Part shown: piece after piece, positions 33,141-54,738 of the stretch
Layout of the letters: each line of letters starts with the position of its first letter
Numbering within the stretch: position 1 is the stretch's first letter
Notes under the pieces: generated by a model
Told to the model about the DNA's origin: nothing
Seen by the model: the letters and a program-made list of their open reading frames with translations, nothing else
Database searches by the model: none
NCBI GenBank assembly: GCA_034670305.1
Contig: JAXMNT010000028.1
Coordinates: forward strand, 1 to 64,000
Source: Deltaproteobacteria bacterium
GTDB lineage: Bacteria; Myxococcota_A; Polyangia; Polyangiales; Houyiibacteriaceae
Length of the DNA: 64,000 bases
Reading direction: 5' to 3'
Made by a program: the position numbers and the translations under genes

Positions 33141-36100
33141 ATGGTCGCGTCCAAGAAGCAGAAGCACACCCAGCTCGCCCTCTCCACCCTCGTGGTGGTC
33201 GACGAGCTTCCCGACGGAACGTGTCTCGTCTACCCGGTGGTCGAACCGCAGACGATTGCGGCGGGGCTCGAGGACAACGCCCTCACCGAGCTGCGTCTGT
33301 TTTTGAGCGAAGACCTCCAGGATGCGGAGGCCGAGCGCATCGCGCGATTCTCCCTGCCCGAAGATGCGTTCGAACAAACGTTTCAGATCGAGCTGCCTCA
33401 GCATGACGTCCCGAAGAACATGCGGCAGAGCGTGCGCGTTCCCGTGCAAACGGTGGTGGTGCCGCACGGCGACGCGCGGTGGGTGCTGATCCCGGCGCTG
33501 AAACACACGATCTACGTGAGCGCGACAGAGGCGCTCGAGGACATCGTCGCGAGCGAACTGGAGCGGCACCTGCTCGCCCGCCAACCCGACGCGTTCGCGC
33601 GACTCTCGCTCTTCGTGACCAGCCACCTGCGGGTGGAACGCATCGCGATTCACGTCGATCTGCCCGCCGCCCTCGCCGACGGCACCCGCGCGCTGCGATC
33701 CAAACTCGCCACCGCCCGCAAGCGGCGCCACGCGCTCGATGTGCTCGCCTCGGTGGGGGTCGCGGTGCACGACGAATCGTTCCTCGCGGGCCCGCCGGTG
33801 GTGGGGCGTACGAACGAGATCGCTGCGCTCGACGCGCTGCTCACTGCAGGCCGCCGCCAGTCGGTGCTGCTGGTCGGTCCCGAGCGCGTCGGCAAGACGA
33901 GCGTGCTGCTCGAGTGGTTGCGCACGAAGGGCGAGTCGCAACGGGTCTTCGGCACCAGCGGCGCGCAGCTGATCGCCGGCATGAGCGGACTCGGCCAGTG
34001 GCAAGCCAGGGTTCAGCGCGTCGTCGAAGCGGCAGAGACGCTCGACGCGATCCTCTACTTCGACGACCTGCGCGATCTGTTCGACCAGCGCGGCGCGAGT
34101 GGCGTCGACATCCCAGCCGCGATGAAGTCGGCGATCGAAGAGGGGCGGATTCGAATCGTCGGCGAGCTCACCGAAGAAGCGGCCGACTTGCTCTCCAGCC
34201 AGCGCGAGGGGTTCTTCCAATCGCTGCACACCATCCGCGTGCCCACGCTCGACCGCGCGGTCTCCGCGACGATGCTCGCGCAGCGCGCCGAGTACACCAA
34301 GACCCACCGCGACCACCTCCCCGAGGTTCAGCCGAGCGCGCTCGAGGCGATGCTCGCGCTGTGCGAGCGCTACCTTCCCTACCGCCCCTTCCCTGGGAAA
34401 GCCGCAGAGCTCTTCGATCAGGTCGTGCAGAGCGCCGAACGCCCCGGGGTGGTGCTCGACGCCGAATCGGAGATACGGGCCAGCGACGTCTACCGTCTGT
34501 TCAGCATCCAGTCCGGCATCCCGGAGTTCCTGCTCCGGGACGACCGCAGCCTCGACCCCGCACGGCTCACCGCACGGTTTCAGTCGCGGCTCATCGGCCA
34601 GACGAACGCTGTGTCGGCGGTGGTGGACACGCTCTGTGTGGTGAAGGCCGGACTGCAGCCCGCTGAGAAACCGCTCGCCACGTTCCTCTTCGTCGGCCCG
34701 ACCGGTGTCGGCAAGACCGAACTCGCGCGCGCGCTCGCGGAGATCCTCTACGGCGCGGAAGACCGGCTCATCCGCTTCGACATGAGCGAGTACGCGGACC
34801 CCTCGGCTGCCCAGCGGCTGATCGCGGGTGGCGACGGCGGCCGCGACGGTCTGTTGACCCGCAAGGTCCGCGAGCAACCATTCGCCGTGATCCTCCTCGA
34901 TGAGATCGAGAAGGCGCATCCCTCCGTGTTCGATCTGTTGCTGCAGGTCACCGGCGAAGGCCGGCTCACCGACGCCCGCGGGCGCACCGCGTTCTTCCAG
35001 AACTCGATCGTCATCATGACCAGCAACCTCGGCGCGACCCACCGGCGCACGCGGGTCGGCATCGAGTCCGCGCCGGACCTCGAGGGTCACTACCTCGACG
35101 AAGTTCGAAAGTGGTTCCGCCCCGAGTTCGTGGGTCGGCTCGACCGGGTGATCCCGTTCCGTCCCCTCGACCGCGACGAAGTCCGGACCATCGCCACGCT
35201 GATGCTCGAACGCATCCGCGGCCGCCGCGGCTTGCAGGATCGCGGCAGCGCGCTCGAGCTGACCGACGCGGCGCTCACCGCCCTCGCCGAAGGCGGCTTC
35301 CACGAAGCGTACGGCGCACGCGCGCTGCGCCGGCACGCCGAAGAAGCGCTGGTGGCACCCATCGCGACCGCGATCGCGCACGCACCGCGCGGCGCCCAGC
35401 TTCACGTCCGGCTCGAAGACGAACCGCCACCCGGCGAACCACTTCAGAAGGCGGTCCGCAACGGGCTGGTGGTTGAAGTGTTGCCCGCCGAACACAAGGT
35501 CAGCCTGAGCGAACTCCAGGTGCTGAACGAAGTGCTTCTGCTTCGTCGTCAGGCCGGTCAGTGGATGGAGCTGCCGGCGGTCGAAGCCCACCGAGAAGAG
35601 ATGTTCACGACGCTCGCCCGGCTGAGCATGCCGCGCTCCAAGAAGGAGCAAGCCCGGGCTGGTCAAGAGATGGCGCGGCTGCAACACCGCCACGCGCAGT
35701 TGAGCGCCTCCTGGGCCCCGGTCCAGGCGGTGCGCGACGAGATCCACGATCTGGAGGAGCTGGTGTTCGCGGCGTGGATGGAACGCGATCGGTACGAGGG
35801 CGCCAAAGAAGAGATCGTGCGGCTGCGACATGAGATGCGCATGGCGCTCTTCCAGATCTACCTAGAGCTCGACGCGCAGCACGAAGCGACCGCCATGCTC
35901 GTCGAACAGGACGAGGGACGCACGTTGGAGCACTGGCTCCTCCCCCTCTACGCCGACGCCGAACGCCGTGGGTGGGAGATCGCGGTGCACCGGTTCAAGG
36001 ATCCGATCGCCAGCCCGGACTGGCCCAAGGAGCGGGGTTTCGGTCCGCCCCGCACCCGGGCGGAGATCACCGAGTGGCTGCAAGAGCCCGCCCGCGATCG

Positions 36101-36533
36101 CGCGGTGCTCTTGATGCGCGTCCGCGGTCGCCACGCCGGCACGCAGATCGCCGCCGAGAAGGGGCTGCACCGTTTTCTGGGTGTGCCTCCGAAGGCGGCC
36201 GGCGCGCACCACATGGTCAAACTTCTCTCGATGCGCTTCGACCTCAAAGCCGACGACTGGTTGCGTGGCCCGATGCAACCGGACGCCCCCGGCGTAAGCA
36301 GCGCGCTCCTGAAAGGCGGCTGCACCCGCTACACCGACGAACGTCCGGACCAGAAGCTGCCCGACGCCTACGTCGAGGTCCCGCTGGACCAATACTGGTC
36401 TCCCTTCAACGCGGACGAACTCTGTCTGCGCGAACTCATCACGCTCGACATCTCTCCGAACCGGGACCGGAGCGGCCTCTGCGACGCGCCGCTCGACCGG
36501 GGGCCGAAGTCGGAGTCGGAGGCGAACGCATGA
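33141..36533 (+). CDS. ClpA/B-like double AAA+ ATPase 1 with C-terminal release-factor-like region
   Basis: D1 GPERVGKT; D2 GPTGVGKTE, FDMSEY, LLDEIEKAH, TSNLG, YGARALRR; extra ~330-aa C-terminus. Confidence 0.92.
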   Translation: MVASKKQKHTQLALSTLVVVDELPDGTCLVYPVVEPQTIAAGLEDNALTELRLFLSEDLQDAEAERIARFSLPEDAFEQTFQIELPQHDVPKNMRQSVRVPVQTVVVPHGDARWVLIPALKHTIYVSATEALEDIVASELERHLLARQPDAFARLSLFVTSHLRVERIAIHVDLPAALADGTRALRSKLATARKRRHALDVLASVGVAVHDESFLAGPPVVGRTNEIAALDALLTAGRRQSVLLVGPERVGKTSVLLEWLRTKGESQRVFGTSGAQLIAGMSGLGQWQARVQRVVEAAETLDAILYFDDLRDLFDQRGASGVDIPAAMKSAIEEGRIRIVGELTEEAADLLSSQREGFFQSLHTIRVPTLDRAVSATMLAQRAEYTKTHRDHLPEVQPSALEAMLALCERYLPYRPFPGKAAELFDQVVQSAERPGVVLDAESEIRASDVYRLFSIQSGIPEFLLRDDRSLDPARLTARFQSRLIGQTNAVSAVVDTLCVVKAGLQPAEKPLATFLFVGPTGVGKTELARALAEILYGAEDRLIRFDMSEYADPSAAQRLIAGGDGGRDGLLTRKVREQPFAVILLDEIEKAHPSVFDLLLQVTGEGRLTDARGRTAFFQNSIVIMTSNLGATHRRTRVGIESAPDLEGHYLDEVRKWFRPEFVGRLDRVIPFRPLDRDEVRTIATLMLERIRGRRGLQDRGSALELTDAALTALAEGGFHEAYGARALRRHAEEALVAPIATAIAHAPRGAQLHVRLEDEPPPGEPLQKAVRNGLVVEVLPAEHKVSLSELQVLNEVLLLRRQAGQWMELPAVEAHREEMFTTLARLSMPRSKKEQARAGQEMARLQHRHAQLSASWAPVQAVRDEIHDLEELVFAAWMERDRYEGAKEEIVRLRHEMRMALFQIYLELDAQHEATAMLVEQDEGRTLEHWLLPLYADAERRGWEIAVHRFKDPIASPDWPKERGFGPPRTRAEITEWLQEPARDRAVLLMRVRGRHAGTQIAAEKGLHRFLGVPPKAAGAHHMVKLLSMRFDLKADDWLRGPMQPDAPGVSSALLKGGCTRYTDERPDQKLPDAYVEVPLDQYWSPFNADELCLRELITLDISPNRDRSGLCDAPLDRGPKSESEANA

Positions 36534-39500
36534 ACGTCGTGCTCCACCTCTTCGAACGGAAGGCCAACGGGGTGTTGAGTTGGTCCACGGTCGGCCTCGG
36601 TCCGCTGAACCAGCAGCTCACCATGCGCAGCCAAGCGAAGATGCGCGCGAAGATGACCGAGGCCGTGAAGACAGCGGTGGGCGGCGCGTCCCACCACGCG
36701 CTTCGATTGCTCGCCGGGCCCTCGCCGAAGCTGCAGCGGGTGCGGCTCGAACTCGTGCTCAAGGGCGAGCGCGGCAAACGCAAGAAGCCCGGCGTCTTTC
36801 CGATCGTGTTCGACACGCGCCGGATCGGTGCCACCGAACGGGTGACCCTCGCGTACCACCCCATCCGTCAACAAGACGTCCAGGTCCTGGACCCCACCGA
36901 GTCGACCGAATCGCAGCTCAGCCGGTTCTTCTCCAAGCAGTGGGCCGAACTCGACGACGAAGCGATCACCGCGCTCGCGGGACGCAAAGGCGACCTCATT
37001 CGGGCGCTTTCGATCACCGTGCGGCCGAAGTCGTTGCTCGACACGCTCGAATCCCGCCGAGGACTGTGGGCCGATCTCGAAGTCGATCCTGACCGTCGGC
37101 GCGACGGTTCCAAGAAGTCGAAGAAGACCAAGTCCAAAGCGGCCGGCAACCCCTCCCTCCTTCAGCGCCTGGGCGCGGACCAGACCGCGCGGGCCGCCGA
37201 CGAGTCCCTCGAGATCGGGCGGCCACGCGAACCACTGCGCGGACAGTTGGGTCAGCTTCTTGGCGGGCCCCGCCGGCAGAGCACGGTGATTCTCGGCGCC
37301 CCGGGCGTCGGCAAACGAACCGCGCTCCGGCACCTGGTCGCCGATCTGCTAGAACACGACGGCTACCCAAGCCACCGCAACCTCGACCGCGTCACCCACG
37401 TCTGGACGGTGCAAGCGAGCCACCTCATCGCGGGCATGAGCTACCTCGGCGAATGGGAGAAGCGCGTCGTCGAACTCGTCGACGAAGTGCGCGGCCGACC
37501 CATCCTCGTGTGGATCGAGGATCTGCATACGCTTGGCCGCGTGGGGCGCAGCCGCGACAGCGAGCGGTGCATGGCCGACGTCTTGCGCGGCCCTGTCCAG
37601 CGCGGCGAGGTCGTGCTCGTCGGCAGCTGTACCCCGTCCCAGTGGCACCGGCTCGAAGAGGACGCGCCTGGGCTCGCCGCCGCCTTCACGACGTTGAGGC
37701 TGGACCCGGCCACCGAACGCGAGACGCTGCAGATGATCTTGCACGAGGTTCGGGTGCTCGAATCCGAAGAGCGCTGCGTGCTCCCTCCCGCGGTCTTGCG
37801 CGGCGTCCTCGAGGAAGGCGCCATCCTCGCCGACCAGTCGCTGCCTGGACGAGCGCTCGACCTCTTGCGCTCACTCGGACGCGGACGGGTCGGCCCTGTG
37901 CACTTCGACGAGCTGGTCGGGGTGCTCGCGCAACGCACCGGTTTGCCGAGCACCATCCTCGACTGGGACGACGGCGAGTCCCGCGAGGAGGTGCTGCACG
38001 AGCTCGGCGAATCCGTGATGGGTCAACCGGACGCGCTCGAAGCTGCGGCCGATCTCATTCTCCGGATCCAGACCGGCCTGACCGATCCCAAGCGCCCCTT
38101 CGGCGCGTTCCTCTTCACCGGTCCGACGGGCACCGGCAAGACGCAGCTGGCCAAGACCATCGCGAGCGCACTCTTCGGGGTCAGCCGACTCGTGCGCTTC
38201 GACATGGGCGAGTTCTCGGGCGCCGATGCGGTGCCGCGCCTGATGGGCGACCGCTGGAACCCGCGGGGACGGCTGACCGAAGCGATTCGCCAGCAGCCGT
38301 TCAGCGTGCTCTTGCTCGACGAGATCGAGAAAGCCCATCCGTCCGTGCTCTACCTGCTCTTGCAGCTGCTCGACGACGGTCGGCTGACGGACGCCACCGG
38401 CGAGCGCGTCGACTTCACCCGCAGCGTGGTGATCCTCACCAGCAACCTCGGCGCACGCACACGTCCCTCGCTCGGATTCAAGGACGCCAACGACGCCGCC
38501 GGCCAGGCGCGCGAGGCCACCCGGACCGCGCAGGACGTCGACAAAGCGGTGAAGGAGTTCTTTCCGCCGGAACTCTTCAACCGGATCGAGAAGGTCGTCT
38601 CCTTCAACCCGCTCAGCGAGACCACCGCGCGCGCCATCGCCGATCGAGAGCTCGCGATGTTGCTCGCACGCCGTGGCCTGCAGGAACGGAACGTCTTCGT
38701 CATTCCGCACGAGTCCGCCATCACCCACATGGCGCGCGCGGCGTTCGACTCGCGCGCCGGCGCGCGCAGCGTGAAGCGCTACCTGGAGACCCACGTCGCC
38801 TCGCTCTTGGCTGAACACCTCGCCTCGCGGGCCCGCCCGGAGATGGAGCTCATTCGCCTCTACCACGAGGGCGACGCCTACCGAATTGCCGCGAGCGCGT
38901 TGACCGAAGACGAACCGCTCGCCGGCGACTCTCCCCTGCGCCCGCTCCTCGACGCCAGCACCGCCCAACTCGCGGCGCATTTGCCCGATGCGCTGTCCCG
39001 CATCGACGCGCTTCGTTCCGACGGTTCGTTGGCGGCGCTCTCGGACCGGCTTCAAACCCACCTCGGCAAAGCCACCTCCAGCGCTGGCGACGCAGACGCC
39101 GTCTACTTCATCGACGTGCTGCGCAAGGAGCTCGACGAGTTCCGCGAACACCTCGAGACCTGGGCGGAGGCAGACGCAATCATTGAAGAGCGCGAGCAGT
39201 TGATCGCGGTCGAGCAGTACGACCGCAGCCCCGCGAGTGAGGGGGACCCGCCGGCGCGGGTGCGCCTGCTTCACCGCCGGTGGATGCGCCCTCCCCTGCC
39301 GCGCCACGACCGCCGCGAGATGCTGGCCGCATTCGCCGATCTGGCGTTCCTCGAACGCGCCGTACGCTCTGGCGCTCCGCTCGGCGGGGACGCGCTCGCG
39401 AGCCACCGGGTGCACGTCGAACTGCTTCGCGTCGGACGGGCGTACGGCGGGAACGCCTCCCTTCTCCCGACCTTGGCCACCTTCTACGCATCGTTGCGCG

Positions 39501-39997
39501 GCGAGTTCGTCTCGGCCGCGTCCTGGGGACCGAACTCCGAACTCTGCACGGGCAGCCTGTCCAAGGTCACCCAGCACCACGCAACCACCTACGTGCTGGA
39601 GCTCGCCGGCATCGACTTGCTCACGGCGTTGTCGGGTGAGACTGGGTGTCACCTGCGGGTCTCGCCCGATGGAGAGTCCGAGGTGGTCCGGGTTCAGCTG
39701 CGGCCCGCCGCGGAAGGTGGACCGGGAGCGGCGATCGAGAAGCTCCTCTCCGACCGCGAACGGTACGCCTCCGCACTCGAGCGAGGTGTGCACCCCGACG
39801 TGGAGGATCCGGACCGACTGCTCCCCGTCGTGCGGCGCATCACGGGCGACCGCCCCACCCGCCAGCCAGCGCTCGTCCAGGTCGAAGACTACCGGGTGCA
39901 GCACGCCGAGCAGGGCCGGGTCCTCAAGATCGAAGAGCTGCTCTTGCCCATGACCTGGCTCCATACGACGTGGTCCGCAGATGGGGTGCCGTCGTGA
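36530..39997 (+). CDS. ClpA/B-like double AAA+ ATPase 2 with C-terminal release-factor-like region
   Basis: ATGA overlap with gene 1; D1 GAPGVGKR; D2 GPTGTGKT, LLDEIEKAH, TSNLG, GARSVKR; extra C-terminus. Confidence 0.92.
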   Translation: MNVVLHLFERKANGVLSWSTVGLGPLNQQLTMRSQAKMRAKMTEAVKTAVGGASHHALRLLAGPSPKLQRVRLELVLKGERGKRKKPGVFPIVFDTRRIGATERVTLAYHPIRQQDVQVLDPTESTESQLSRFFSKQWAELDDEAITALAGRKGDLIRALSITVRPKSLLDTLESRRGLWADLEVDPDRRRDGSKKSKKTKSKAAGNPSLLQRLGADQTARAADESLEIGRPREPLRGQLGQLLGGPRRQSTVILGAPGVGKRTALRHLVADLLEHDGYPSHRNLDRVTHVWTVQASHLIAGMSYLGEWEKRVVELVDEVRGRPILVWIEDLHTLGRVGRSRDSERCMADVLRGPVQRGEVVLVGSCTPSQWHRLEEDAPGLAAAFTTLRLDPATERETLQMILHEVRVLESEERCVLPPAVLRGVLEEGAILADQSLPGRALDLLRSLGRGRVGPVHFDELVGVLAQRTGLPSTILDWDDGESREEVLHELGESVMGQPDALEAAADLILRIQTGLTDPKRPFGAFLFTGPTGTGKTQLAKTIASALFGVSRLVRFDMGEFSGADAVPRLMGDRWNPRGRLTEAIRQQPFSVLLLDEIEKAHPSVLYLLLQLLDDGRLTDATGERVDFTRSVVILTSNLGARTRPSLGFKDANDAAGQAREATRTAQDVDKAVKEFFPPELFNRIEKVVSFNPLSETTARAIADRELAMLLARRGLQERNVFVIPHESAITHMARAAFDSRAGARSVKRYLETHVASLLAEHLASRARPEMELIRLYHEGDAYRIAASALTEDEPLAGDSPLRPLLDASTAQLAAHLPDALSRIDALRSDGSLAALSDRLQTHLGKATSSAGDADAVYFIDVLRKELDEFREHLETWAEADAIIEEREQLIAVEQYDRSPASEGDPPARVRLLHRRWMRPPLPRHDRREMLAAFADLAFLERAVRSGAPLGGDALASHRVHVELLRVGRAYGGNASLLPTLATFYASLRGEFVSAASWGPNSELCTGSLSKVTQHHATTYVLELAGIDLLTALSGETGCHLRVSPDGESEVVRVQLRPAAEGGPGAAIEKLLSDRERYASALERGVHPDVEDPDRLLPVVRRITGDRPTRQPALVQVEDYRVQHAEQGRVLKIEELLLPMTWLHTTWSADGVPS

Positions 39998-42243
39998 CCG
40001 AGCCGAACAGCAAGAGCTCGCTGCGGGTCTACTTCATCGAACACGCGGATGGTCGCCGGACCGGGCATTTGATGCGGCGGCTGCGGACCTTCTTCGATCC
40101 CCCGGCGCCGACCGCGTACGGAGAGACCGAAGAAGAGGTGTACGGACGCATCGAAGCCGAGCTTCAGGAGCGCATCGTCCGGGGCGATGTGATCGAGCGG
40201 TACCTCTGGAACGAACACTTCGAGACCCGGACCGTGTCGCTGGAGGTCTACCCGGTCGCGATGATCGAGCAGCAACCGGTGGTCGGCGCACGGGAACTCC
40301 CACTCCGTCTGACGTACGCGTACGCCAAGACCGAGAGCGGCGCGTACCGAGTGATGCTGCCGCGCTTCGAGTGGTGGCTGGTGCTCGAGAGCCTCGACAC
40401 CGCCAAACACGCGATCAGCCATGCGGTGGCCGCCGCGATGCTCGGCGCCGAACCGGCGTGGCTCTACGACTTCCGGCGCGAAGGCAACGAGTACGTCCGG
40501 GAGTGGGCGCCGCCCATGGTCCGCGACCGCAGCAAGAAGCCGGCGGCCCGCGCGCGCGAGGAACGACCCACGCTCGCGGCCGTCGCTGACGACTGGGTCG
40601 AACGCGCGTCGAAGGGCAAGCTGCCGAAGCCCGTCGGTGAGGCGCGCCTCAAGCCGCACTGGAACGCCTTCAAACGCACCCCCTACTCGGCGCTCCTCGT
40701 GGGCGGCCCCGGCGTGGGCAAGACCTGCGAGGTGCAACACCTCGCTCGGATCCTTCTTCAGGCCCGCCGCGCGAACGAGAAGGACGTGCCCGGCCTCTTC
40801 GCCACCCGGGCCGACCGCCTCATCTCGGGCATGATCTACGTCGGCATGTGGCAGGAGCGGATGCTGAAACTCGTGGAGGAGCTTCGCCACGAGAACGAGG
40901 TCCTCTACGTCGACCGGCTCGATGGGTTGCTCCGCCCGCAGCCCGACGGCGCGTCGCTCGCGGACATGCTCGCGCCGGCACTCGCCGCGCGCGAGATCTT
41001 CTTGATGGCGGAGTGCACCCCGGCCGAGCTGGTCGAAGCGCGCCGCTTGAACGCGTCGTTCGTCGACTTGCTCACGACCATCCACCTGCGCGAACCGCAC
41101 GCGGCTTGGATGCTCCCACACCTCACCGAGTACGCGCGCCGCGGCAAGAAGTCCTTCGAACGCCGCTCGATGAAGCGCTCGCTGGAGCTTCTGGGCGCCT
41201 ACCGCCGCGACCGGCGCTTCCCTGGCAAAGCGTTCCGGTTCATCGACGCGATCGAGCGGGACGACCAGACCCCGCGCGCCCTCTACCCGAACGACGTGGA
41301 GCAGGCGTTCTCTCGCCAGACCGGGTTGCCGATCGAACTCATCAGCGACAGCCACGCAGCGAGCGTCGAACACGTGGGCGCAGCCCTTCAGAAGTGGGTG
41401 ATCGGGCAGGACGGCGCGTGCCTGCGCGCCGCCCGCGCCATCGCGCCCTTCAAAGCCGGACTCAACCCGCCCGATCGCCCGCTGGCCAGCTTGCTCTTCG
41501 CAGGTCCGACCGGCGTCGGCAAAACCGAGCTCGCCAAGACGATGACGCGCTACCTCTTCGGCGGCACCCACCGGCTGGTGCGCATCGACATGAGCGAGCT
41601 CAATGCCCGCGGCGCCTCGCACCGGCTCCTGGCGGCGGGCCGCGGTGTGCGAAGCCTGGCCGAGTCGGTCCGCCGGGAGCCCCTGTCGGTCGTGCTCTTC
41701 GACGAGGTCGAGAAGGCCGCCAGCGACGCGTTCGACGTCTTGCTCGGCATCCTCGGAGAGGGCCGCCTGACCGACGCGCTCGGGCGGTTCGTCGACTTCC
41801 GCATGACGCTCATCGTGATGACGTCCAACCTCGGCGTGCGGGCCTCGGGACCGGTCGGGTTCGGTGGAGCCGCCACCGGTGAGGACTTCTTGCGCGCGGT
41901 ACGGGATCACTTCCGGCCAGAGTTCGTGGGCCGCATCGATCAGCTCGTGCCCTTCTCGCACCTCGAGCCCGAAGACGTCCGCAAGATCGTCGACCTGCAG
42001 CTGGCGCTCGTGGAAAAGCGCGAGGGCTTCGCTCGGAGAGGCATTCGCATCGAAGTCTCGGGCGACGCCCGCACCCGCCTGGCCGAGCTCGGCTACGACC
42101 GCCGCTTCGGCGCCCGCCCCCTCAAGCGCGTCATCGAAGCCCACGTCGTGACCCCGATCGCCGTCCGGCTCAGCGCCGATCCGAAACTCGCCAACACCAC
42201 CCTGCACATCGGCACGACCAGCGCGGCGGACGTCGTCGTCTGA
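39994..42243 (+). CDS. ClpA/B-like double AAA+ ATPase 3 (no C-terminal extension)
   Basis: GTGA overlap with gene 2; D1 GGPGVGKT; D2 GPTGVGKTE, FDEVEKA, TSNLG, FGARPLKR. Confidence 0.92.
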   Translation: MTEPNSKSSLRVYFIEHADGRRTGHLMRRLRTFFDPPAPTAYGETEEEVYGRIEAELQERIVRGDVIERYLWNEHFETRTVSLEVYPVAMIEQQPVVGARELPLRLTYAYAKTESGAYRVMLPRFEWWLVLESLDTAKHAISHAVAAAMLGAEPAWLYDFRREGNEYVREWAPPMVRDRSKKPAARAREERPTLAAVADDWVERASKGKLPKPVGEARLKPHWNAFKRTPYSALLVGGPGVGKTCEVQHLARILLQARRANEKDVPGLFATRADRLISGMIYVGMWQERMLKLVEELRHENEVLYVDRLDGLLRPQPDGASLADMLAPALAAREIFLMAECTPAELVEARRLNASFVDLLTTIHLREPHAAWMLPHLTEYARRGKKSFERRSMKRSLELLGAYRRDRRFPGKAFRFIDAIERDDQTPRALYPNDVEQAFSRQTGLPIELISDSHAASVEHVGAALQKWVIGQDGACLRAARAIAPFKAGLNPPDRPLASLLFAGPTGVGKTELAKTMTRYLFGGTHRLVRIDMSELNARGASHRLLAAGRGVRSLAESVRREPLSVVLFDEVEKAASDAFDVLLGILGEGRLTDALGRFVDFRMTLIVMTSNLGVRASGPVGFGGAATGEDFLRAVRDHFRPEFVGRIDQLVPFSHLEPEDVRKIVDLQLALVEKREGFARRGIRIEVSGDARTRLAELGYDRRFGARPLKRVIEAHVVTPIAVRLSADPKLANTTLHIGTTSAADVVV

Positions 42244-42333: not shown

Positions 42334-43440
42334 ATGGAACTCGTGCGCCCGGCCCTCTCCCGCGATCCCCTCAGTGGCGACACCGACTGGTTCGCCGTCG
42401 AGTACGACCCCGAGACCCGCGAGGTCGTCATGCTCGAGCAGCGCGCCCTCCCGAGCGAGGTGAACTACCACCGCTACCGGACGGTCGACGAGATCGCCGA
42501 TTCCATCCGGGACATGGTGGTGCGCGGCGCCCCGGCGATCGGGATCGCGGCGGCCTACGGGCTCGTGCTGCTCGCTGGAAAAGAGAAGGGAGACGCACCG
42601 ACCTTCCTCATGGCGAACGGGGTCGCGGGCAAACACCTCAACGCGACGCGTCCGACCGCCGTGAACCTGGCCTGGGCCATCGCCCGCATGTCCCGCAAAG
42701 CCGCGGACGTGGCCGCGCTCGATCCCGACGCGCGCTACGCGGCGATGCTGGAAGAGGCCGAGAACATCCACCGCGAAGACGTCGCCTCGTGCCGCGCGAT
42801 GGGGGCCCTGGGCGCCGCCGATGTCCCTGAGGGCGCGACCATCCTCACCCACTGCAACGCGGGGGCGCTGGCGACCGGTGGCTACGGCACCGCGCTCGGC
42901 GTCATTCGCGCCGCCCACGAGGCGGGCAAGAAGATCCGCGTGCTGGCCGACGAGACCAGGCCCTACCTGCAAGGTGCGCGGCTCACCGCGTGGGAACTCT
43001 TCGCGGACGACATCCCCGTTGAAGTCATCACCGACAACATGGCCGGGCACTTCTTCCAGAAAGGCGAGATCGACTTCGTCGTGGTCGGCTCCGACCGCAT
43101 CGCCGCCAACGGAGACGTCGCCAACAAGATCGGCACCTACAGCGTGGCCGTGCTCGCCCGCGCCCACGAGGTCCCCTTCACCGTCGCCGCGCCCTGGAGC
43201 ACGATCGATCTCTCGATGCCCACCGGCGAAGGCATCCCCATCGAACAGCGCAGCCGCGAAGAGGTCGCGGTGGTGGGTCAGCGCACCCTCGTCGCCGATG
43301 GCATCCCCTGCCGACACCCTGCGTTCGATGTGACCCCGGCCCGGCTGGTCGACGCGATCTACACGGAACGCGGCGTCATCCGCCCAGCCAAGGGCGAGTC
43401 GCCCGCCTCCGTGATCGCAGAGAAGAAGGCGCAGGGATGA
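42334..43440 (+). CDS. mtnA: S-methyl-5-thioribose-1-phosphate isomerase
   Basis: [51 protein letters not shown]. Confidence 0.96.
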
Positions 43441-43961
43441 AGCTGACCGAAGCGGAGGTCCGCCACATCGCGCAGCTCGCCCGCATCCAACTCGACGACG
43501 AAGAGATCGCCCGCACCGCATCCGAACTCACCGCCATCCTCACCCACGTCGCCGAGCTCGACCGCTTCCAAGAAGGCGCAGCTTCGCAGTCGGATTCGGC
43601 AACGGATTCGGCATCGGCTCCAGCATCGGCTTCAGATTCGGCATCGGATTCGGCATCGGCTTCGGCTTCGGCATCGACTTCGGATTCGGATTCGGATTCG
43701 GCATCGGCTGCGGCGTCGGCGTCGGCTTCGGCATCGGAATCGGCTTCGGATTCGGCTTCGGATTCGGCTTCGGCTTCGGATTCGGCGTCGGATTCGGCAT
43801 CGGATTCGGCTTCGGCGTCGGCTTCGGCTTCGGCTTCGGATTCGGCATCGGCATCGGCATCGGCTCCGGCTCCCCCAGCAGACCCCGCCGCCCTCACCGC
43901 CGCCGCGCCCGCGTTCGTCTCCGACGGCTTCCTCTTCCCACGCGCGGTGAAATCGAAATGA
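43437..43961 (+). CDS. gatC: Asp/Glu-tRNA amidotransferase subunit C with internal Ser-rich repeat insertion
   Basis: [12 protein letters not shown]-terminus; AP…DGFLFPR C-terminus; directly upstream of gatA. Confidence 0.85.
43588..43870. repeat. TCGGCN/TCGGAT hexamer tract in frame within gatC
   Basis: Encodes about 94 aa of (SA/SD)n. Confidence 0.93.
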
Positions 43962-45325
43962 CCGACGCCATGACGGCGGCCGAGATCGTCGAAGAAGCCC
44001 AGACCGGCGACCCGTTGCGTTTCGCGATCGCCGCCCACGCGCGTCTGTCGAACACAGACACCCACCACACCACGCTCCAGATTCTCGAGCCCGAGCAGCC
44101 GCCCGCACCCGGCCCGCTGACCGGCGTCGCGATCGCGCTCAAGGACAACATCTGCCAACGCGGCACCCGCACGACCTGCGCGTCGCGCTTGCTCGAACAC
44201 TGGGAAGCCCCCTACGACGCGACCGTCGCCAAGCGGCTGCGAGACGCCGGCGCGTTGCTGGTCGCCAAGACCAACATGGACGAGTTCGGCATGGGCTCTT
44301 CCACCGAGAACAGCGCGTTCGGTCCCACGACCCACCCGCTCGACGCCACTCGAGTGCCCGGCGGATCGAGCGGGGGCTCCGCCGCAATCGTCGCCGCCGC
44401 GCTCGTCCCGATCGCGCTCGGCAGCGACACTGGCGGGTCGGTGCGCCAGCCCGCGGCGTTCTGTGGCGTGTTCGGCCTCAAACCCACCTACGGGGCGGTG
44501 TCGCGCTTCGGGCTCGTCGCCTTCGGTTCCAGCCTCGACCAGATTGGGCCGCTCGCCACGACCTCGCGCGATTGCGCGCGCACCTTCGACGTGATCGCCG
44601 GACACGACCCGGCCGACGCAACATCCGCCAAGCACGCCCACGCTTCCACCGAACAAGCGTGCGGGCGCTCGGTCGTCGGTGAGCGGATCGGTGTGCCGCG
44701 CGCGCTCCTCGAAGGCGCGAGCGACGAAGTCCTTCGCGCGTTCGACGAGGGCCTGTCCGAGCTCCGGGAGGCCGGCGCCGAGGTGGTCGACATCGAGCTG
44801 CCGAACGCCGCGCTCTCGGTCAGCGCCTACTACGTTCTCGCCACCGCGGAGGCGTCGAGCAACCTCGCGCGCTTCGACGGCGGCCGGTACGGCCTGCGGG
44901 TCGACGCGCCCGATCTGCAGTCGATGTACGAACGCACACGCGCGTGTTTCGGAGCCGAGGTGAAGCGGCGCATCTTGCTCGGCACCTTCGCGCTCTCGGC
45001 CGGCTACCACGACCGGTTCTACGCCAAAGCGCAGGCGGTGCGACACGCGATCGCGGCCGACTTCGCGACGGCTTTCGCAGCGGGCTGCACCGCCGTCGCC
45101 ACGCCCACGACACCCACGGTCGCGTTCGAACTGGGCAGCTACGAGGGCGACCCACTCGCGATGTACCTCTCGGACCTCTACACCCTGCCCGCGAGCCTTG
45201 CCGGACTACCCGCCTTGAGCGCGCCCTTGCGCCGACCCCGCGGCGCGCTCCCCGCCGGGTTGCAGCTCGTTGCGCCGGCGTTTCAGGAAGCGACGCTCTT
45301 CGCACTCGGGTCGGTGTTCGGATGA
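43958..45325 (+). CDS. gatA: Asp/Glu-tRNA amidotransferase subunit A
   Basis: ALKDN, KTNMDEFGMGSSTENS, PGGSSGGS, GSDTGGSVRQPA, EVKRRILLGT. Confidence 0.95.
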   Translation: MTDAMTAAEIVEEAQTGDPLRFAIAAHARLSNTDTHHTTLQILEPEQPPAPGPLTGVAIALKDNICQRGTRTTCASRLLEHWEAPYDATVAKRLRDAGALLVAKTNMDEFGMGSSTENSAFGPTTHPLDATRVPGGSSGGSAAIVAAALVPIALGSDTGGSVRQPAAFCGVFGLKPTYGAVSRFGLVAFGSSLDQIGPLATTSRDCARTFDVIAGHDPADATSAKHAHASTEQACGRSVVGERIGVPRALLEGASDEVLRAFDEGLSELREAGAEVVDIELPNAALSVSAYYVLATAEASSNLARFDGGRYGLRVDAPDLQSMYERTRACFGAEVKRRILLGTFALSAGYHDRFYAKAQAVRHAIAADFATAFAAGCTAVATPTTPTVAFELGSYEGDPLAMYLSDLYTLPASLAGLPALSAPLRRPRGALPAGLQLVAPAFQEATLFALGSVFG

Positions 45326-46844: not shown

Positions 46845-47999
46845 TCAGAAGCAGAAGCCGACGCAGGAGCCGCCGGGGAAACAAGCGCAGGGTCCAGCGG
46901 GCGCACACGCGCTCGACGACCCGCACATGCAGTTCCCAGACGTGCACCGATCGGTCGAGTCGCCGTCGCACGCGCGGCCACACGCGCCGCAGTGGTCGAA
47001 GTTGTTGGTGGTGTTGGTGCAGAGCGTGCCGCAGCACGCCTCAGACGCCGCGCAGGTTCGACCGCACGCGCCGCAGTGCTCGACGTTGTTCTCGACCGTC
47101 ACACAGCTTCCCCCGCAGCAGCGCTGCGTGCCCAGGCATGCGACGCCTGCGCCGCACCGGCAGACGCCAGCCACGCAACTCTCGCCCGCCGCACAGGCAG
47201 GCTCGCAAGGAACGTCGGTGGTGCACGTGCCCGCCAAGCAGACCTCTTCGCCGCTGCAGGTCACGCCGCATGCCCCGCAGTTCGCGGAGTCGGCGGACGT
47301 ATCGAGGCACGCGCCGTCGCAGCAAGACTGTCCGGTGGTGCATGCCGCGCCCGCGCCGCACATGCAGGTGCGCGTGGTGGCTTCACAGGTCTCGCCATCG
47401 GCGCACGCAGGGTCGCAGGGAGGAATCACGCACGCGCCGGCCTCGCACACCTGACCCACCTCGCAGGCGCGCCCGCAGGTGCCGCAGTTGAGCGCGTCGG
47501 TCATGATCTCTTGGCAGCCGTCTTCGCAGCAGACGCTTCCGTCCACGCACTGAGGATCTTCGCCGCAGCGGCACTGGCCCGAAGCGCAGGTCGTGCCGCG
47601 CGTGCCGCACATGCGACCGCACGCGCCACAGTGAACCGGGTCCGTCGGCAAGCTCGCGCACACGCCATCGCAACACGACTGGCCACTCGGACACGGCGTG
47701 TCCGGTCCGCATCCCGGATCGACACACGTGCCGAGCCGACAGATCTGTTCGCCCACACAGTCGGGCACACACGCGAAGCCGGTGTCGGCCGCGTCCACAC
47801 CCGGGACATCTTCGGGCACACCCATGTCGGGGGTGCCTGTGTCGGTGCGCGCGGCGTCGACGCGGGTTCCGCTGTCTTCGCGAATGGTGCCGGACGCACA
47901 GCCAAGCGCGAACAGCCCAGTGGCCAGGACCCCCACGACCCCCAGAAAAGAGGCCGAAGCCAGCGCAGTGGAAGGTGGGCGAGTGGAAAGAGAAGTCAT
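46845..47999 (-). CDS. Cys-rich repeat lipoprotein (myxobacterial DxxNCGxCGxxC repeats)
   Basis: Lipobox FALGC; repeated HCGACG/NCGTCG units. Confidence 0.88.
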   Translation of the reverse strand: MTSLSTRPPSTALASASFLGVVGVLATGLFALGCASGTIREDSGTRVDAARTDTGTPDMGVPEDVPGVDAADTGFACVPDCVGEQICRLGTCVDPGCGPDTPCPSGQSCCDGVCASLPTDPVHCGACGRMCGTRGTTCASGQCRCGEDPQCVDGSVCCEDGCQEIMTDALNCGTCGRACEVGQVCEAGACVIPPCDPACADGETCEATTRTCMCGAGAACTTGQSCCDGACLDTSADSANCGACGVTCSGEEVCLAGTCTTDVPCEPACAAGESCVAGVCRCGAGVACLGTQRCCGGSCVTVENNVEHCGACGRTCAASEACCGTLCTNTTNNFDHCGACGRACDGDSTDRCTSGNCMCGSSSACAPAGPCACFPGGSCVGFCF

Positions 48000-49324: not shown

Positions 49325-50764
49325 ATGGCTTCGCCTCCCGCTGGAGCCGGCCGCGTGAAGGAACGTTCGGGGTGGACCACCGCCAGCGTGGAGGCGGTGC
49401 CGCGGTTGGATGGGGACAGCGACCCGACACCGGGTCTCGTACTGGTGTACTCCCGGCTGCACGAACACCTGCCCGCGGCGCTCCCGTTCACCGGCGCGTT
49501 GACGACGCTCGGGCGAGAATCCGACAACACATTGTCGATCCCGGAAGCGGCGGTCAGCCGACACCACGCACGGGTCGAGATGCGCGGAGACCGGTACTGG
49601 ATCGTCGATCAGGGATCGACGAACGGGACCGTGATCAATGGAACCAAAGTTCCTGAGCACTGTCTCCGAGAACACGACATCGTGCGCGTCGGTGACACAA
49701 TCTTTCGACACGTCGAGCGTGGCGTCTACGGGTATGGCGCGTACCGGCTCGATGGCACCACCGTCGACACCGCCCGCCCGTTTCCCCATTCGGTAAGCGG
49801 CTCGCCGATCGTGGGTGGGCTCCAGGTCGACGCGCTGCTGGCACAACTGGAGAAGGTCGCGAACACCGCACTGTCGGTGGTCATCCACGGCGAGAGCGGC
49901 ACCGGCAAAGAGTTGGTCGCGCAAGAGCTGCATCGGCTCAGCCGACGCGAGGGGCCGCTGCAGGCGATCAACTGCGCCGCCCTTCCGGCCAACCTTCTGG
50001 AAAGCGAACTGTTCGGATACCGAAAGGGTGCATTCACGGGCGCTACTTCGGACAAGCTCGGACTGATTCAGGCGGCCCACCGAGGCACGCTCTTTCTGGA
50101 TGAGATCGGGGACATGCCGCTGGACGCGCAGGCCAAACTCCTGCGGGTGCTTCAGGAGAAGAAGGTCCTCCCGATCGGCGCGACGAGTCCGATTCAAGTC
50201 GATGTGCGGGCGGTCTGTGCGACCCACCGCAACCTGGACCAGTTCGTCGCGGACGGGCGCTTCCGAGGGGACCTCCTCGCTCGACTGCGGGAGTACGCCG
50301 TGGTGTTGCCGCCCTTGCGCGAGCGCCGCGAAGATCTGTGTCGCCTGGTCGCGCATTTTCTCGAGCGCAGCGGGCACCCCAAGACGCGGCTGAGCTTTCC
50401 GTACATGCTCGCGCTCGCCCACTACGACTGGCCCTACAACGTGCGAGAGCTCGAGAGCGCTGTGAAGCTATCGCTCGCGCTCTCGGATGGGAGCGAACTC
50501 GATCTGGTGCACTTGCCCGCGGGCATTCAGGCAGCGCTCGATCGCCACGGCGAACCGGCGCGCGACAGCATCCGCCCGCCGACTCCGTCCAAGCCGCCCG
50601 CCAAGAAACCTCGAGGGACGACCCCGACCGAAGAGGAGCTGCGTGCGCTCTTGACGGAACATCAGGGCAACATCGCGGCGGTCGGCCGGGAGCTCGGCAA
50701 GAAGCGGATGCAGATCCACCGCTGGCTCAAGCGCTACGACATCGACATCGAAGAATACCGCTAG
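49325..50764 (+). CDS. FHA-domain sigma54-dependent enhancer-binding protein
   Basis: FHA GR…SRHH…[36 protein letters not shown]-terminal HTH. Confidence 0.95.
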
Positions 50765-50936: not shown

Positions 50937-51048
50937 CTAGTCAACCGACGTGGGTGACGTACTGCCATTTCCGGGAGGGACGCTTGATGAGGTCCCCTCC
51001 ACCCCCTATCTTGAGCGCCATCGACTCGGCTCCTCCGGTCCATCCCCC

Positions 51049-54000
51049 ATGGCTTCCACTACCCACGGCCGCGCGCTGCCCAGTCCCGTTTGCGTTGGAC
51101 GCGAACCGGAACTCGATCGACTGACCGAGTTCCATCGCGACGCAGAGCGCAGCGGGGAACGGCTGGTGCTCGTGGAGGGCCCTTCGGGAAGCGGCAAGTC
51201 CCGCCTGCTGGCCGAGCTCGCCCGCCGAACCCGCCTCGACGGTGGCGTCGTGCTCGAGGGCCGCTGCGATCCCGGCCGTGCGTTCGGTGCATTTGCCACC
51301 ATCGTCGAACGGGCGCTTCGCTTTCTCGACGACATGAGCGTCACGACCACCGTCGACCTGCGCGACCTCGCGTGCTCGAGTGGCTGCCACCGGTTCTGGC
51401 ATCAGCACGTCCAAGAGGCGGGCAACCGTCTGGACGAAGACACCCGAGAAGCGAAAGAGCGCAGGCTCCGCTTCTTCGATGCGGTGCGCGGTGTGCTCCG
51501 CGATGTCTCTCGCGTCCGTGCGCCACTGGTGCTGTTGCACGACCTCGAGCGAAGCGACGAAGCCACGCTTCAGCTCCTCCGCTTCCTCTTCGCCGGTGCA
51601 GGACCCTGGACCGACGGCGTCGACCCGGGCCAGTCGATGCACGCGCTCGTGCTCGCGAGCGTGGGCCCCGGTGAGAGCCGCCTGAACACACTCCGCGACC
51701 AAGACACCACGACCGTGATGAAGGTCGGGAAACTCGACGCCGACGGAGTGCGGGCGCTCTTGCAGAGCGAGACGATGGTGCGCCGGGTGCTCGAACGCAC
51801 CGGCGGACTTCCAGAGCGGATCGAACTGCTGCTCGAGGCGGACCCGCTCAGCCCGCGCCAAGCGCTGACGCGTCGACTCGACGTGCTCTCGGACGGAGCG
51901 CGGGCGCTGCTCGAAGCCCTCTCGGTGTTGGAGCATCCGTCGGACCTGGAGCTCGTCGGCAAGGTGGCCGCGGTGGACATCTCGCCGGCAGACCGACAGG
52001 CCATCGCGCAGTCGGGGCTCGTCGACCAGACCGTGCTCGACGGCAAGATCCTCTTCGCGTTCAACCGCGAAAGCCAGCGGGCGCTCGCCTACGAGAGCAT
52101 GCCCGAAGCGCGGCGCCGCGAGATGCACCGCACCTGCGCCAAACTCTTCGTGGACGAACACCGACGCGAACAAGCCGCGCGCCACGCGCTCGATGCGGGC
52201 GACTTCGAACAAGCCGTGCCGATGTCGCTCGAGGACGCGCAGGCACTCGCCGCCCGCCACGCCCACGCCGAGGCCGCCGCGCTGCTCGAGCGGGTGCTGG
52301 AACGCGCCCCGGCCGAGGCGATTCCGCCCGAACTGCGCGAGTACCTCTCCGAACTCTACCGAGTGGTCGGTGAGTACAAGAACGCCCTCACCCACGCGGA
52401 AGTGCTGCGGGATCAATTTCCGCGAGACGCCATGGCGGCCCACCGGGTCGGCCGGCTGCTCACGCTCTCCGGTCAGCTCGACGAGGCCGCCAAGTCTTTG
52501 CGCGCCGCCCACGAACTCGCGGTGCGGGTCGAGGTTCGGGTCCTGGTCGAAACGGCGCTTGCCGAACTCGACTACCAACGCGGCCGTTTCGACGACGCCG
52601 CGAACTGGGCCAACCAAGCACTCGAGGCCAAGCTCGAAGCCGAAGAACTGCCGCTGATGATCCACGCCCGCAACACGCTGGGCAAAGTGGCACTCGCGCG
52701 AAAAGAAGCCGCGAGCGCATCGGTCTTCTTCGAAGCGAACCGCCTCGCCGCGGAGGCTGCCGGCCTCGGCCACGAAGAAGCCCAGGCGCGCACGAACTTG
52801 GGCGTGGCACGGATGCGGGAGCAGCGTCTCGACGAAGCCCGGGAATGCTTCGCGCGGGCGATCGAAGTGGCCGCCGCGGTCAACGACTCGCGCGACTTGG
52901 CGATCGCCACCGAGAACCTCGCGGTCCTGGCCCACCTGCGCCGGAACTACAAAGAGGCCCTCGACAGCTACCACGAAGCCGTCACCTTGCTGAAACGCCT
53001 CGGCAACCGAGCGATGCTCGCGCGGGTGGGCATCAACTTGGGCGAGCTCTACCTCAGCCTTGGCGACGCCCGACGCGCCGGCGCGCTGTGCGACTTTGCC
53101 CAGCACATCGGGGGCCAAGACCTGCCTCCCGTGCGCGCTGGTGAATGTCTGTTGCTCCGCGGCCGCGTCGAAGCGCGACGCGGGGAGATCGACCGGAGCC
53201 GGGCCAGCCTCGAAGCGGCACACGCGTCCTTCGCGAGCGTCGAATCCACCAAAGCCAGCCAGCCGCTGGTGGAGCTCGTCCGACTTTCCCTGGTCGAGGG
53301 CGACCTTCAGGCGGCACGCAAGTTCATCGCTGCGCTTCCGGAGACCGAGTCCCCGAAACAGGCAGCCGAGCTCGCCATCCTCGACGCAGACCTCGAACGA
53401 GCCGCCGGCGGCGACACGCTCTTGGTCGCCCAGCGCGCGATGGCCGCCGCTGCTCGCGCCGAAGACGATGAGCTGCGGCTCGAAGCCCTCATCCGCCTTT
53501 GCAAAGCCCAGTGCGACGCATCGGATTTGAGCGCCGCCCATACCTTGCACGAAGCGTTCGCGCTCGAGGACGCGCTCACCGCCCGCGTGCCCGACGAAGC
53601 CAAGGACGCGTGGCGCGGCCGCCCGACCCGCCTCGAACTCTCCGAGCTCGACTCGCGAACCGCACGCCTCGGCGGACGGCGTCCCTCGCAGATCCCCACG
53701 CCGCGCACGCGCTCGGTGGAGATGGATCGCCGCTACCCGGTGATCGCCGGAACGTCGGATCGCACCGTCCACCTGCTCGAGGTGCTGGACAAGGTCGCGC
53801 CGAGCGACGCCACCGTGCTCGTCCGCGGCGAGAGCGGTACCGGCAAGGAACTCGTCGCGGACGCGCTCCACCGTCACTCCTCCCGCAGCGACCGCCCGCT
53901 GGTGAAGGTCAACTGCGCCGCCCTGGTGGAGACGCTGTTGCTCAGCGAACTCTTCGGCCACGAGCGCGGGGCGTTCACGGGTGCGAGCGCCCGCAAGAAG

Positions 54001-54738
54001 GGCCGGTTCGAGCTCGCCGACGGCGGCACCCTCTTTCTCGATGAGATCGGCGACATCTCGCCGAAGACTCAGGTCGCGTTGCTTCGGGTCCTCCAGGAGC
54101 GCGAGTTCGAGCGTGTCGGCGGCACCCAAGCCATCAAGGTAGACGTCCGCATCATCTGCGCGACCCACCGCAACCTCGAGGCCATGGTCCAGGACGGTTC
54201 GTTCCGCGAGGACCTCTACTACCGCCTTCGCGGCGTCTCCATCGATGTGGCACCCCTCCGTGACCGGATCGGCGATCTGCCCGAGCTGGCGCACCATCTG
54301 CTCACCCGAATTGCGGCCGAGCGGGGCGACGAGCCCCGACAGGCGTCCCCCAAGGTGCTGGAGATGCTCGAGCGCCATGCCTGGCCGGGCAACGTGCGGG
54401 AGCTCGAGAACGTGCTCCGCAGCGCCACGCTGTTCGCGGAAGGCGCCTGGCTAGAACCCAGTGATTTCGCGGCTTTGGGCGAGTCTTTCCTCCCGGTCGA
54501 GAAGCCGGTCGAGGTTCCCCAGAGCCAGTCGGTCGAAGACTCGATCTACGACCGCATCCGAAGCGGGGACAACTCGCTCCTCGAGATCAAGAAAGTCATC
54601 GAACGCGAGTGCATCGCACGCGCCTTGATGGATGCGGACGGGAACATTACCCGCGCCGCGGAGTTGTTGGGAATGAAGCGGCCTAGACTTTCACAATTAG
54701 TGAAGCAATACAGTCTGGGATCGTATAAGAAGGTGTGA
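51049..54738 (+). CDS. Large sigma54 enhancer-binding protein: N-terminal STAND-like AAA + TPR + AAA+ EBP + HTH
   Basis: CVGREPEL…[11 protein letters not shown]-like [39 protein letters not shown]. Confidence 0.93.

Follow-up and report, generated by a model that had tools for sequence, protein, structure and literature searches.

Relatives of translational release factors (RFs) that act outside normal termination have been described in several systems. According to parts of one report, Balon is a homologue of aeRF1 that has neither the NIKS nor the GGQ motif, yet its binding to the ribosomal A site does not depend on mRNA (PMC10901736). Both Balon and Dom34/Pelota, in the sections of the two papers dealing with them, are RF relatives minus the catalytic and codon-reading motifs, acting in the A site in hibernation or rescue (PMC10901736, PMC6514570). 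In the RF survey of Burroughs and Aravind, the relevant passages describe Vms1/ANKZF1 as an RF-family protein coupled to the double-ring AAA+ ATPase Cdc48 at the ribosome, and PrfH and ArfB as truncated RF1/RF2 derivatives that function outside normal termination (PMC6514570). The same survey lists RF1, RF2, ArfB, PrfH and eukaryotic derivatives; in its section 2.4 and its passages on AAA+ proteins and fusions, the AAA+ mentions concern Cdc48 only and a fusion of an RF to a Clp-type ATPase is not mentioned, although the supplementary lists could contain such architectures (PMC6514570). The full-text literature search likewise returned no description of a Clp/AAA+-RF fusion or of a GGQ-less module of the bacterial RF1/RF2 type. 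Here such an architecture is described for ATPase 1, a ClpA/ClpC-like protein encoded in a 64,000-nt stretch of a deltaproteobacterial genome (contig JAXMNT010000028.1, positions 1 to 64,000). The whole stretch is called the window, and gene coordinates are window positions. On sequence evidence, it was concluded that the last ~320 residues of ATPase 1 are a real but highly diverged homologue of bacterial class-I RFs, with RF2 as the most likely source.

The locus differs from each of the described systems. Balon and Dom34/Pelota have the unrelated aeRF1 fold, are free-standing and partnered with EF-Tu-like GTPases, and carry no ATPase fusion. Vms1, in the passages on it, belongs to the aeRF1 superfamily, is described as an RF peptidyl hydrolase (presumably active), and binds Cdc48 non-covalently via a VIM motif (PMC6514570), whereas the RF part in the window is of the bacterial type, has no catalytic motif and is covalently fused to its ATPase. 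The likeness to Vms1-Cdc48 is one of logic only. PrfH and ArfB have kept the GGQ domain and lost domain 1, and the window module shows the reverse. Normal RF1 and RF2 are retained in the same genome beside the module. The genome also holds a 229-aa PrfH (RFH)-like open reading frame (ORF) with a PCRF end and a GGQ domain and without domain 1 (locus L003, 1078-1767, - strand, contig C14).

The ATPase 1 gene most likely runs from an ATG start codon at 33141 to position 36533. The encoded protein consists, in this order, of an N-domain, a degenerate D1, an active-looking D2, D2-small and the RF-derived C-terminal module. The coordinates of the parts were derived from residue numbers, and the borders of D1 and of the RF sub-domains are approximate:

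33141..36533, + strand: ATPase 1, 1130 aa, from the ORF and its start; Pfam AAA_2 and ClpB_D2-small, NCBIfam ClpA/ClpB-like
33141..33755, + strand: N-terminal domain of ~205 aa, of no known family; no Pfam match, profile search of the PDB empty
33771..34550, + strand: D1 AAA+ ring, approximate coordinates, from the alignment with the genome's own Clp/Hsp100 proteins and the wider clade
34668..35381, + strand: D2 AAA+ ring and D2-small, from Pfam coordinates and motif columns
35571..35855, + strand: helical part like RF domain 1, residues ~811-905, from hhalign; the Pfam PCRF match falls here
35856..36245, + strand: core like RF domain 2, residues ~906-1035, with the helix-5 equivalent and a beta-sheet, from hhalign
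36021..36053, + strand: family-specific conserved insert within domain 2, residues 961-971, from column counts; stands opposite a gap in the RFs in hhalign
36126..36173, + strand: common RF signature Gly...Glu-x-Gly-x-His-Arg, residues 996-1011, from column counts; aligns to the RF1/RF2 motif
36246..36530, + strand: C-terminal tail, residues 1036-1130, from the end of the local hhalign alignment

Pfam AAA_2 was matched at residues 510-669 (E 1.5e-43) and ClpB_D2-small at residues 676-747 (E 3.6e-13), and the NCBIfam ClpA model covered residues 219-745 at under a third of its cut-off. From the positions of these matches, the ~380 residues past D2-small were recognised as extending a ClpA/B-like double AAA+ protein at its C-terminus. 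None of the NCBIfam equivalog cut-offs was reached by ATPase 1 (ClpB, 303 vs 1232 bits; ClpA, 297 vs 993; ClpV, 231 vs 885), and an NCBIfam scan of the C-terminal modules of ATPase 1 and of its downstream paralogue ATPase 2 returned 0 families. The N-domain of ATPase 1 is probably related to that of the third paralogue, ATPase 3, judging by an hhalign probability of 78%. The initial annotation had noticed a GGQ-less resemblance to RF2 domains 1 and 2 after D2. All of the peptides quoted there were found in the translation of 35601-36533 (frame 2 of 35600-36533), which covers the last 310 aa of the ORF, and the Pfam coordinates bore out the placement after D2. The E. coli RF2 strings given there for comparison were present, whole or in part, in the alignment to PDB chain 1gqe_A.

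The resemblance was faint when ATPase 1 was searched as a single sequence. The Pfam PCRF family (PF03462) was matched with an E value of 0.0072 and 16.6 bits, below the cut-off of 24 bits, and there was no Pfam match to the RF-1 catalytic domain (PF00472). Six of the 41 family members matched PCRF at E <1, and among the scores seen none reached the cut-off (best E 2.3e-4, 21.4 bits). A phmmer search of the PDB gave 0 matches. BLASTP against the RF2 and RF1 of the same genome aligned only the same segment of 23-24 aa (E 0.033 and 0.072, respectively), and the PCRF model run over this genome recovered the true RF1, the true RF2 and a short third ORF, the ATPase 1 gene not being recovered. No relative was found when genome contigs were searched for related loci with the single protein. 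Since the single-sequence resemblance was only a hint, relatives were collected for the construction of profiles. An exhaustive HMMER search with residues 750-1130 yielded 153 representatives (50% clusters) at E <=1e-3, 107 of them at E <=1e-10; most were proteins of ~1100 aa that matched at the C-terminus. A profile of 41 family sequences (A1) and a family hidden Markov model (HMM) of 119 sequences were built.

With profiles, the resemblance stood well clear of chance. Among 177,635 PDB sequences, A1 gave 35 matches, of which 27, including the top 19, were RF1 or RF2 (best E 1.1e-4); the others, all at E >=0.014, were coiled-coil proteins or, in a few cases, unrelated chains. In the six-frame translation of the 7.9-Mb genome, A1 matched nothing beyond its own gene, RF2 (E 7.4e-4) and RF1 (E 0.5). 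Across 301 genomes of the phylum, strong family members were found in 12 genomes and weak matches (~1e-6) in 9 further ones; those in three of the nine were checked, and all three proved to be the genuine RFs. The family HMM gave a listed colinear match in all of 28 RFs, with a whole-sequence E <=0.01 in 23 of them. Profile-profile comparison by hhalign against 26 clean RFs resulted in a probability of 95.9% in local and 97.0% in global mode. With 119 family sequences against 46 RFs (25 RF1 and 21 RF2), the probabilities were 96.5% (E 1e-9) and 97.7% (E 9e-12), respectively. Protein residues 811-1073 (query 62-324) were thereby paired with RF1 residues 4-252.

Reversed query profiles used as an hhalign control dropped to a probability of 0.2-2.3%, and 20 column shuffles of the domain-2 part scored 9.7-15 compared with 41.6 for the real one. 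Taken alone, the helical domain-1 part reached a probability of 66% and the domain-2 part 76-84%; both parts therefore contribute to the signal, and do so in the correct order. Whether the PDB, the window's genome or the phylum was searched, the domain-2 core scored best, with a bias of 0.0. Profiles of the N-domain, searched against the PDB as a negative control, found no RF and nothing else. Common descent of the module with RF domains 1 and 2 is thus supported at the profile level. The initial annotation had pointed to PCRF and profile searches as a check on its claim: the single-sequence PCRF match stayed below the cut-off, and the profile-profile comparison with RF1/RF2 answered in favour of the claim. 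The resemblance that had been noticed was a true colinear RF homology, and the observation as a whole was confirmed.

The module has kept the helical domain 1 and an amphipathic helix aligned to RF helix 5 (W932, L933, L936, R943 and W945), whose pattern it shares with RF1 and RF2, being colinear with them over domains 1 and 2. The common signature is also conserved, with G996 in 119/119 members, E1006 in 107/119, G1008 in 118/119, H1010 in 94/119 and R1011 in 95/119. The module differs from RF1/RF2 in its position behind a 750-aa AAA+ ATPase and in several losses. The absence of GGQ stated for ATPase 1 extends to the whole family: in all 119 members the tripeptide is missing from the aligned loop, which has two conserved prolines instead, and the string occurs elsewhere by chance, at scattered non-homologous positions, in 7 of the 119. 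Stop codons are read in RF1/RF2 by the PxT or SPF tripeptide loop and by the Gly..Glu tip of helix 5, and RF domain 4 completes the domain 2/4 unit; neither the tripeptide loop, the helix-5 tip nor a recognisable domain 4 is a conserved feature of the module. An 11-residue conserved insert absent from RF1/RF2 has been gained, with W961 (98/114), P962, R965 and an aromatic-G-P-P-R run at 967-971 (G968 in 97/119, P969 in 99/119). The final ~95 residues fall within the long local alignment and are weakly paired there with the first strands and the helix of RF domain 3. The C-terminal tail may be a GGQ-less remnant of that domain, because the local profile alignment continues into its first strands (to RF1 residue 252). 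The net charge and isoelectric point of the module are RF-like and acidic, which is not discriminating, and the ESM Atlas comparison gave low recognition with no informative neighbours.

Proteins linking the family to RFs were found in the same phylum. In another genome, PCRF was matched above the Pfam cut-off (62 bits) inside an AAA+ protein of 922 aa. One of the fusions with a much clearer RF2-like C-terminus is placed as follows:

Locus L044, 3854-6622, - strand: AAA-RF fusion with a clearer RF2-like C-terminus

A search with the ATPase part of the 922-aa fusion returned many relatives, of which the nine best loci were examined. Eight of these encode ORFs of 936-1393 aa whose C-termini match the RF HMM (E 5e-17 to 2e-5), and the window-family HMM matched four of these fusions (E 5e-9 to 2e-6). 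The AAA-RF fusion loci of the phylum (L044, L098-L104 and L106) encode ATPases of 922-1393 aa. The module occurs within an ORF of at least 900 aa in at least nine genomes of a sample of 121, a count that is a lower bound, with 63 further matches outside it.

When the linking fusions were aligned together (alignment A5), three forms were distinguished. In one, the RF-like module has four domains, a shortened anticodon-mimic loop and other residues in place of the GGQ tripeptide. In another, seen in two fusions, domain 3 is cleanly deleted and domain 4 kept. The third is the protein found first, with Gly-Gly-Pro at the GGQ position. Against the PDB, the A5 profile matched RF2 with an E value of 5e-28 (over RF2 residues 13-360) and RF1 with 2e-19, all 39 of its 39 matches being RFs, and a comparison of A5 with A1 gave a probability of 88%. 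The clearer relatives thus support the proposal that RF2 was the source, whereas the window family's own preference was slight (hhalign score 68.9 for RF2 vs 59.3 for RF1).

In all of the linking fusions the RF-derived module directly follows D2-small and the derived ATPase motifs are common, as in the window. They differ from the window locus in being single genes rather than triads and in an RF part that is far less diverged. Because of the same placement after D2-small, a clade of Clp-like ATPases would appear to have once acquired an RF2 copy, and within that clade the window's module is best seen as the member that has diverged furthest. No conserved neighbours of the ten single-gene fusions were found, only antisense shadow ORFs, and a word-index search with the fusion of genome G005 returned only itself.

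Further, the motor was compared in a motif alignment of the three window paralogues and nine relatives (12 clade proteins) with ordinary Clp/Hsp100 proteins, three of the four that the genome encodes. ATPase 1 resembles ClpA/ClpC in its two AAA+ modules, with AAA_2 and D2-small, and in having no M-domain, which is absent across the clade. However, no Clp_N domain was found on the full-length protein among the best 25 of 31 Pfam families. The Walker A motif of D1 is intact in 10 of the 12 proteins, the exceptions with an altered motif being ATPase 2 and the G005 protein. The Walker-B Glu of D1 is absent across the clade, including all three paralogues, Asp-Asp replacing Asp-Glu in ATPase 1. The D1 pore loop is derived (Tyr-Leu-Gly-Glu-Trp type), with its Tyr kept in ATPases 2 and 3 and lost only in ATPase 1 and the G005 protein. 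In D2, the Walker A and B motifs are canonical except in the G005 protein, and the GYVG pore loop is absent across the clade, again including all three paralogues. These features set the window ATPases apart from ClpA/ClpC, together with the long RF-like C-terminus and the co-encoding of three paralogues. Like the ClpA/ClpC-like proteins of the same genome, 10 of the 12 clade proteins carry a hydrophobic-Gly-Phe loop at the position of the ClpP-docking loop, and the G005 protein lacks one. At this position ATPase 1 has Val-Gly-Ile, ATPase 2 Leu-Gly-Phe and ATPase 3 Val-Gly-Phe, a loop reading taken from the alignment only. Among PADLOC models, the AAA core matched PDC-M37B (1e-23) and DolB (3e-22), over the AAA domain only.

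ATPase 1 is the first of three genes in tandem:

36530..39997, + strand: ATPase 2, 1155 aa, 31% identical to ATPase 1 over the AAA core; 4-base overlap with gene 1
38987..39715, + strand: C-terminal module of ATPase 2, residues ~820-1062, from hhalign to the ATPase 1 family
39994..42243, + strand: ATPase 3, 749 aa, third paralogue; 4-base overlap with gene 2

Judging from their sequences, these are three paralogous, translationally coupled double-ring AAA+ ATPases of the ClpA/ClpC-like type. The C-terminal ~370 aa of ATPase 2 are homologous to the C-terminus of ATPase 1 and colinear with it (hhalign with 9 orthologues, 91%, E 1e-6). Compared directly with RFs, the ATPase 2 module reached an hhalign probability of only 14-27% and is more diverged than that of ATPase 1. 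ATPase 3 ends past D2-small and has no RF-like module. The gene order 1-2-3 was kept in 8 of 9 related loci with enough context, from several families of the phylum. The named records with family members are metagenome-assembled genomes labelled Myxococcota, Myxococcales or Myxococcaceae. A distant variant of the three-ATPase cluster was also observed at L067 (G201:C13:31000-49000), with two genes on one strand, one on the opposite strand and a weak RF-like profile match (E 2.3e-8).

No conserved flanking genes were found around the triad, only antisense shadow ORFs. In the window it is flanked by a divergent M19 dipeptidase upstream and by mtnA and gatCAB downstream. The M19 membrane-dipeptidase-like gene (31737 to ~32850, - strand) lies inside an antisense shadow ORF of 1364 aa, which extends across gene 1. 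The gatC-like gene (43437-43961, + strand) has a long Ser/Asp/Ala-rich low-complexity stretch before its conserved end, and is followed by gatA (43958-45325) and gatB (to 46761). Farther on are a 384-aa protein with many cysteine-rich repeats behind a signal-peptide-like start (46845-47999, - strand) and two consecutive regulators which, from their sequences only, were judged to be of the sigma-54-activator type (49325-50764 and 50950-54738, both + strand). The former has ~479 aa; the latter, of 1262 aa, has a long ATPase/TPR-like region at its N-terminus. Scanning the window for Rfam families and tRNAs gave nothing relevant. The stretch was present in four DNA sequencing runs of one study, which may be from the source sample, with no RNA run among those listed.

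It was also observed that 15 of 158 family proteins end in a tail of ~40 aa resembling the helix-hairpin of the L7/L12 C-terminal domain (P0017, P0020, P0022, P0024, P0027, P0030, P0037, P0048, P0052, P0100, P0103, P0129, P0133, P0145 and P0155). This domain of L7/L12 is a GTPase-binding surface. The tails scored up to 32.7 bits with Pfam Ribosomal_L12, four of the six tested being at or above the cut-off, and a tail HMM searched against the window's genome matched only rplL. Pfam DUF6793 matched the same tail stretch weakly. Besides rplL, the L7/L12 C-terminal domain is matched once more in the genome, above the cut-off (L005, contig C5:70848-71045, + strand, E 2.2e-8), which appears to be a small stand-alone ORF of ~85 aa.

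We proposed that the RF-derived arm acts as a stop-codon-independent tRNA/RF mimic, which would dock at the ribosomal A site or the factor-binding site without peptide release. Such docking would tether a probably heteromeric ATPase ring to ribosomes. ATP would be hydrolysed in D2 only, and the ring may couple to ClpP via its (L/V/I)-Gly-Phe loops. On stalled or idle ribosomes, the ring would remodel, extract or degrade some target. A ribosome-docking AAA+ machine with an RF-derived arm is the explanation that we consider best, with about even confidence. Docking is suggested because the closer relatives have a near-full RF2 shape, because some members carry the L7/L12-like tail and because Balon provides a precedent. 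A more far-reaching version is advanced only tentatively. In this version, the family would be a previously unrecognised class of ribosome-directed Clp machines, in which an RF2, joined to the C-terminal end of a ClpC-like ATPase, lost GGQ and the ability to read stop codons. This RF2 would now serve as a codon-blind tRNA-mimic arm (in some members with an L7/L12-like GTPase-binding tail) plugging an ATP-driven, ClpP-coupled hetero-hexamer into the A/factor site of stalled or hibernating ribosomes, so that bacteria would have, in covalent form, an equivalent of Vms1-Cdc48 or of Pelota-type rescue.

Several findings weigh against ribosome docking, which is the preferred mechanism, yet one that we infer from sequence features that suggest it. 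The stop-codon-reading elements of RF1/RF2 are not conserved in the family columns, RF domain 4 was not recognised in the window's family, and the C-terminal tail alone gave an hhalign probability of only 0.2% against RFs and had no significant similarity to anything. The L12-like tail is absent from the window's protein. Neither around the triad nor at the ten fusion loci was a ribosomal, tRNA, ClpP or rescue gene found as a conserved neighbour, and the genome's two clpP genes are located elsewhere. Classical threading is doubtful because of the clade-wide loss of the D2 pore-loop Tyr and because no ATP hydrolysis is expected in D1. Of the interpretation in the initial annotation, the structural part was supported; the functional suggestion, that a dead A-site-binding module could deliver an unfoldase to ribosomes or act as a decoy, is complicated by two of these findings, namely the unconserved stop-codon-reading elements and the atypical motor. 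In particular, the term unfoldase is not established, because D1 has no Walker-B Glu and D2 no GYVG pore loop.

That the RF resemblance is a chance or compositional effect of a coiled coil and a short motif is very improbable and close to refuted. The weak single-sequence statistics and the coiled-coil proteins at E >=0.014 in the A1 search of the PDB would fit such an effect, but most of the score is carried by the domain-2 part, which is not a coiled coil and shows no bias. Moreover, reversed and shuffled profiles stayed at background, RF2 and RF1 were the sole non-self matches in the translated genome, and intermediate proteins connect the family to RF2 at E 5e-28. The main rival to ribosome docking is reuse of the RF fold away from the ribosome, which we regard as possible, if on the doubtful side. 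The fold would be either an assembly or autoregulatory domain of a hetero-oligomeric ring (cf. the M-domain of ClpB/ClpC), or a bait that captures binders of RF2 or of the L7/L12 stalk (RF3, other translational GTPases, RF-modifying enzymes) for the motor. It would account for a module whose ribosome-reading elements are all lost, yet whose hydrophobic core and family-specific Trp/Pro/Arg insert are conserved, and for its presence on two of the three subunits, as for a structural element. The L7/L12-like tail added in some members and the prfC gene (RF3) of the genome would suit the bait, but prfC is not adjacent to the triad and no partner is encoded nearby. A near-full-length RF2-like module, as in the closer relatives, also exceeds the needs of a scaffold.

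A conflict or defence function is possible but improbable, and little here speaks for it. In this reading, RFs would be the target of phage proteins, toxins or peptide antibiotics by which they are trapped or attacked, the dead RF would serve as decoy or sensor for these agents, and the ATPase would be the effector or remover. The triad is self-contained and patchy (12 of 301 genomes) with differing neighbourhoods, and its AAA core resembles the ClpB-like ATPases of the PADLOC candidate defence systems PDC-M37B and DolB. However, those matches span only the generic ATPase core, the window neighbours are housekeeping genes (the M19 dipeptidase, mtnA and gatCAB), and no nuclease, toxin or mobile-element gene is conserved alongside. 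The ribosome-docking machine remains the explanation that we prefer over both fold reuse and defence.

The database names seen for the family are only ClpA, ClpC, "ATP-dependent Clp protease ATP-binding subunit" and "AAA family ATPase", and these are corrected by the present finding. Catalytically dead relatives of RFs have each revealed a new pathway of ribosome rescue or hibernation, as was the case for Pelota and Balon, and to our knowledge all of the dead relatives described come from the archaeo-eukaryotic RF fold. In the present case, a GGQ-less derivative of the bacterial RF fold is joined to an energy-consuming motor of the Clp type in a conserved set of three subunits, in a family of more than 150 sequence clusters. 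If ribosome binding is true, AAA+ remodelling or proteolysis would be linked directly to the bacterial A site; if the module does not bind ribosomes, the RF fold would have been reused for another purpose.

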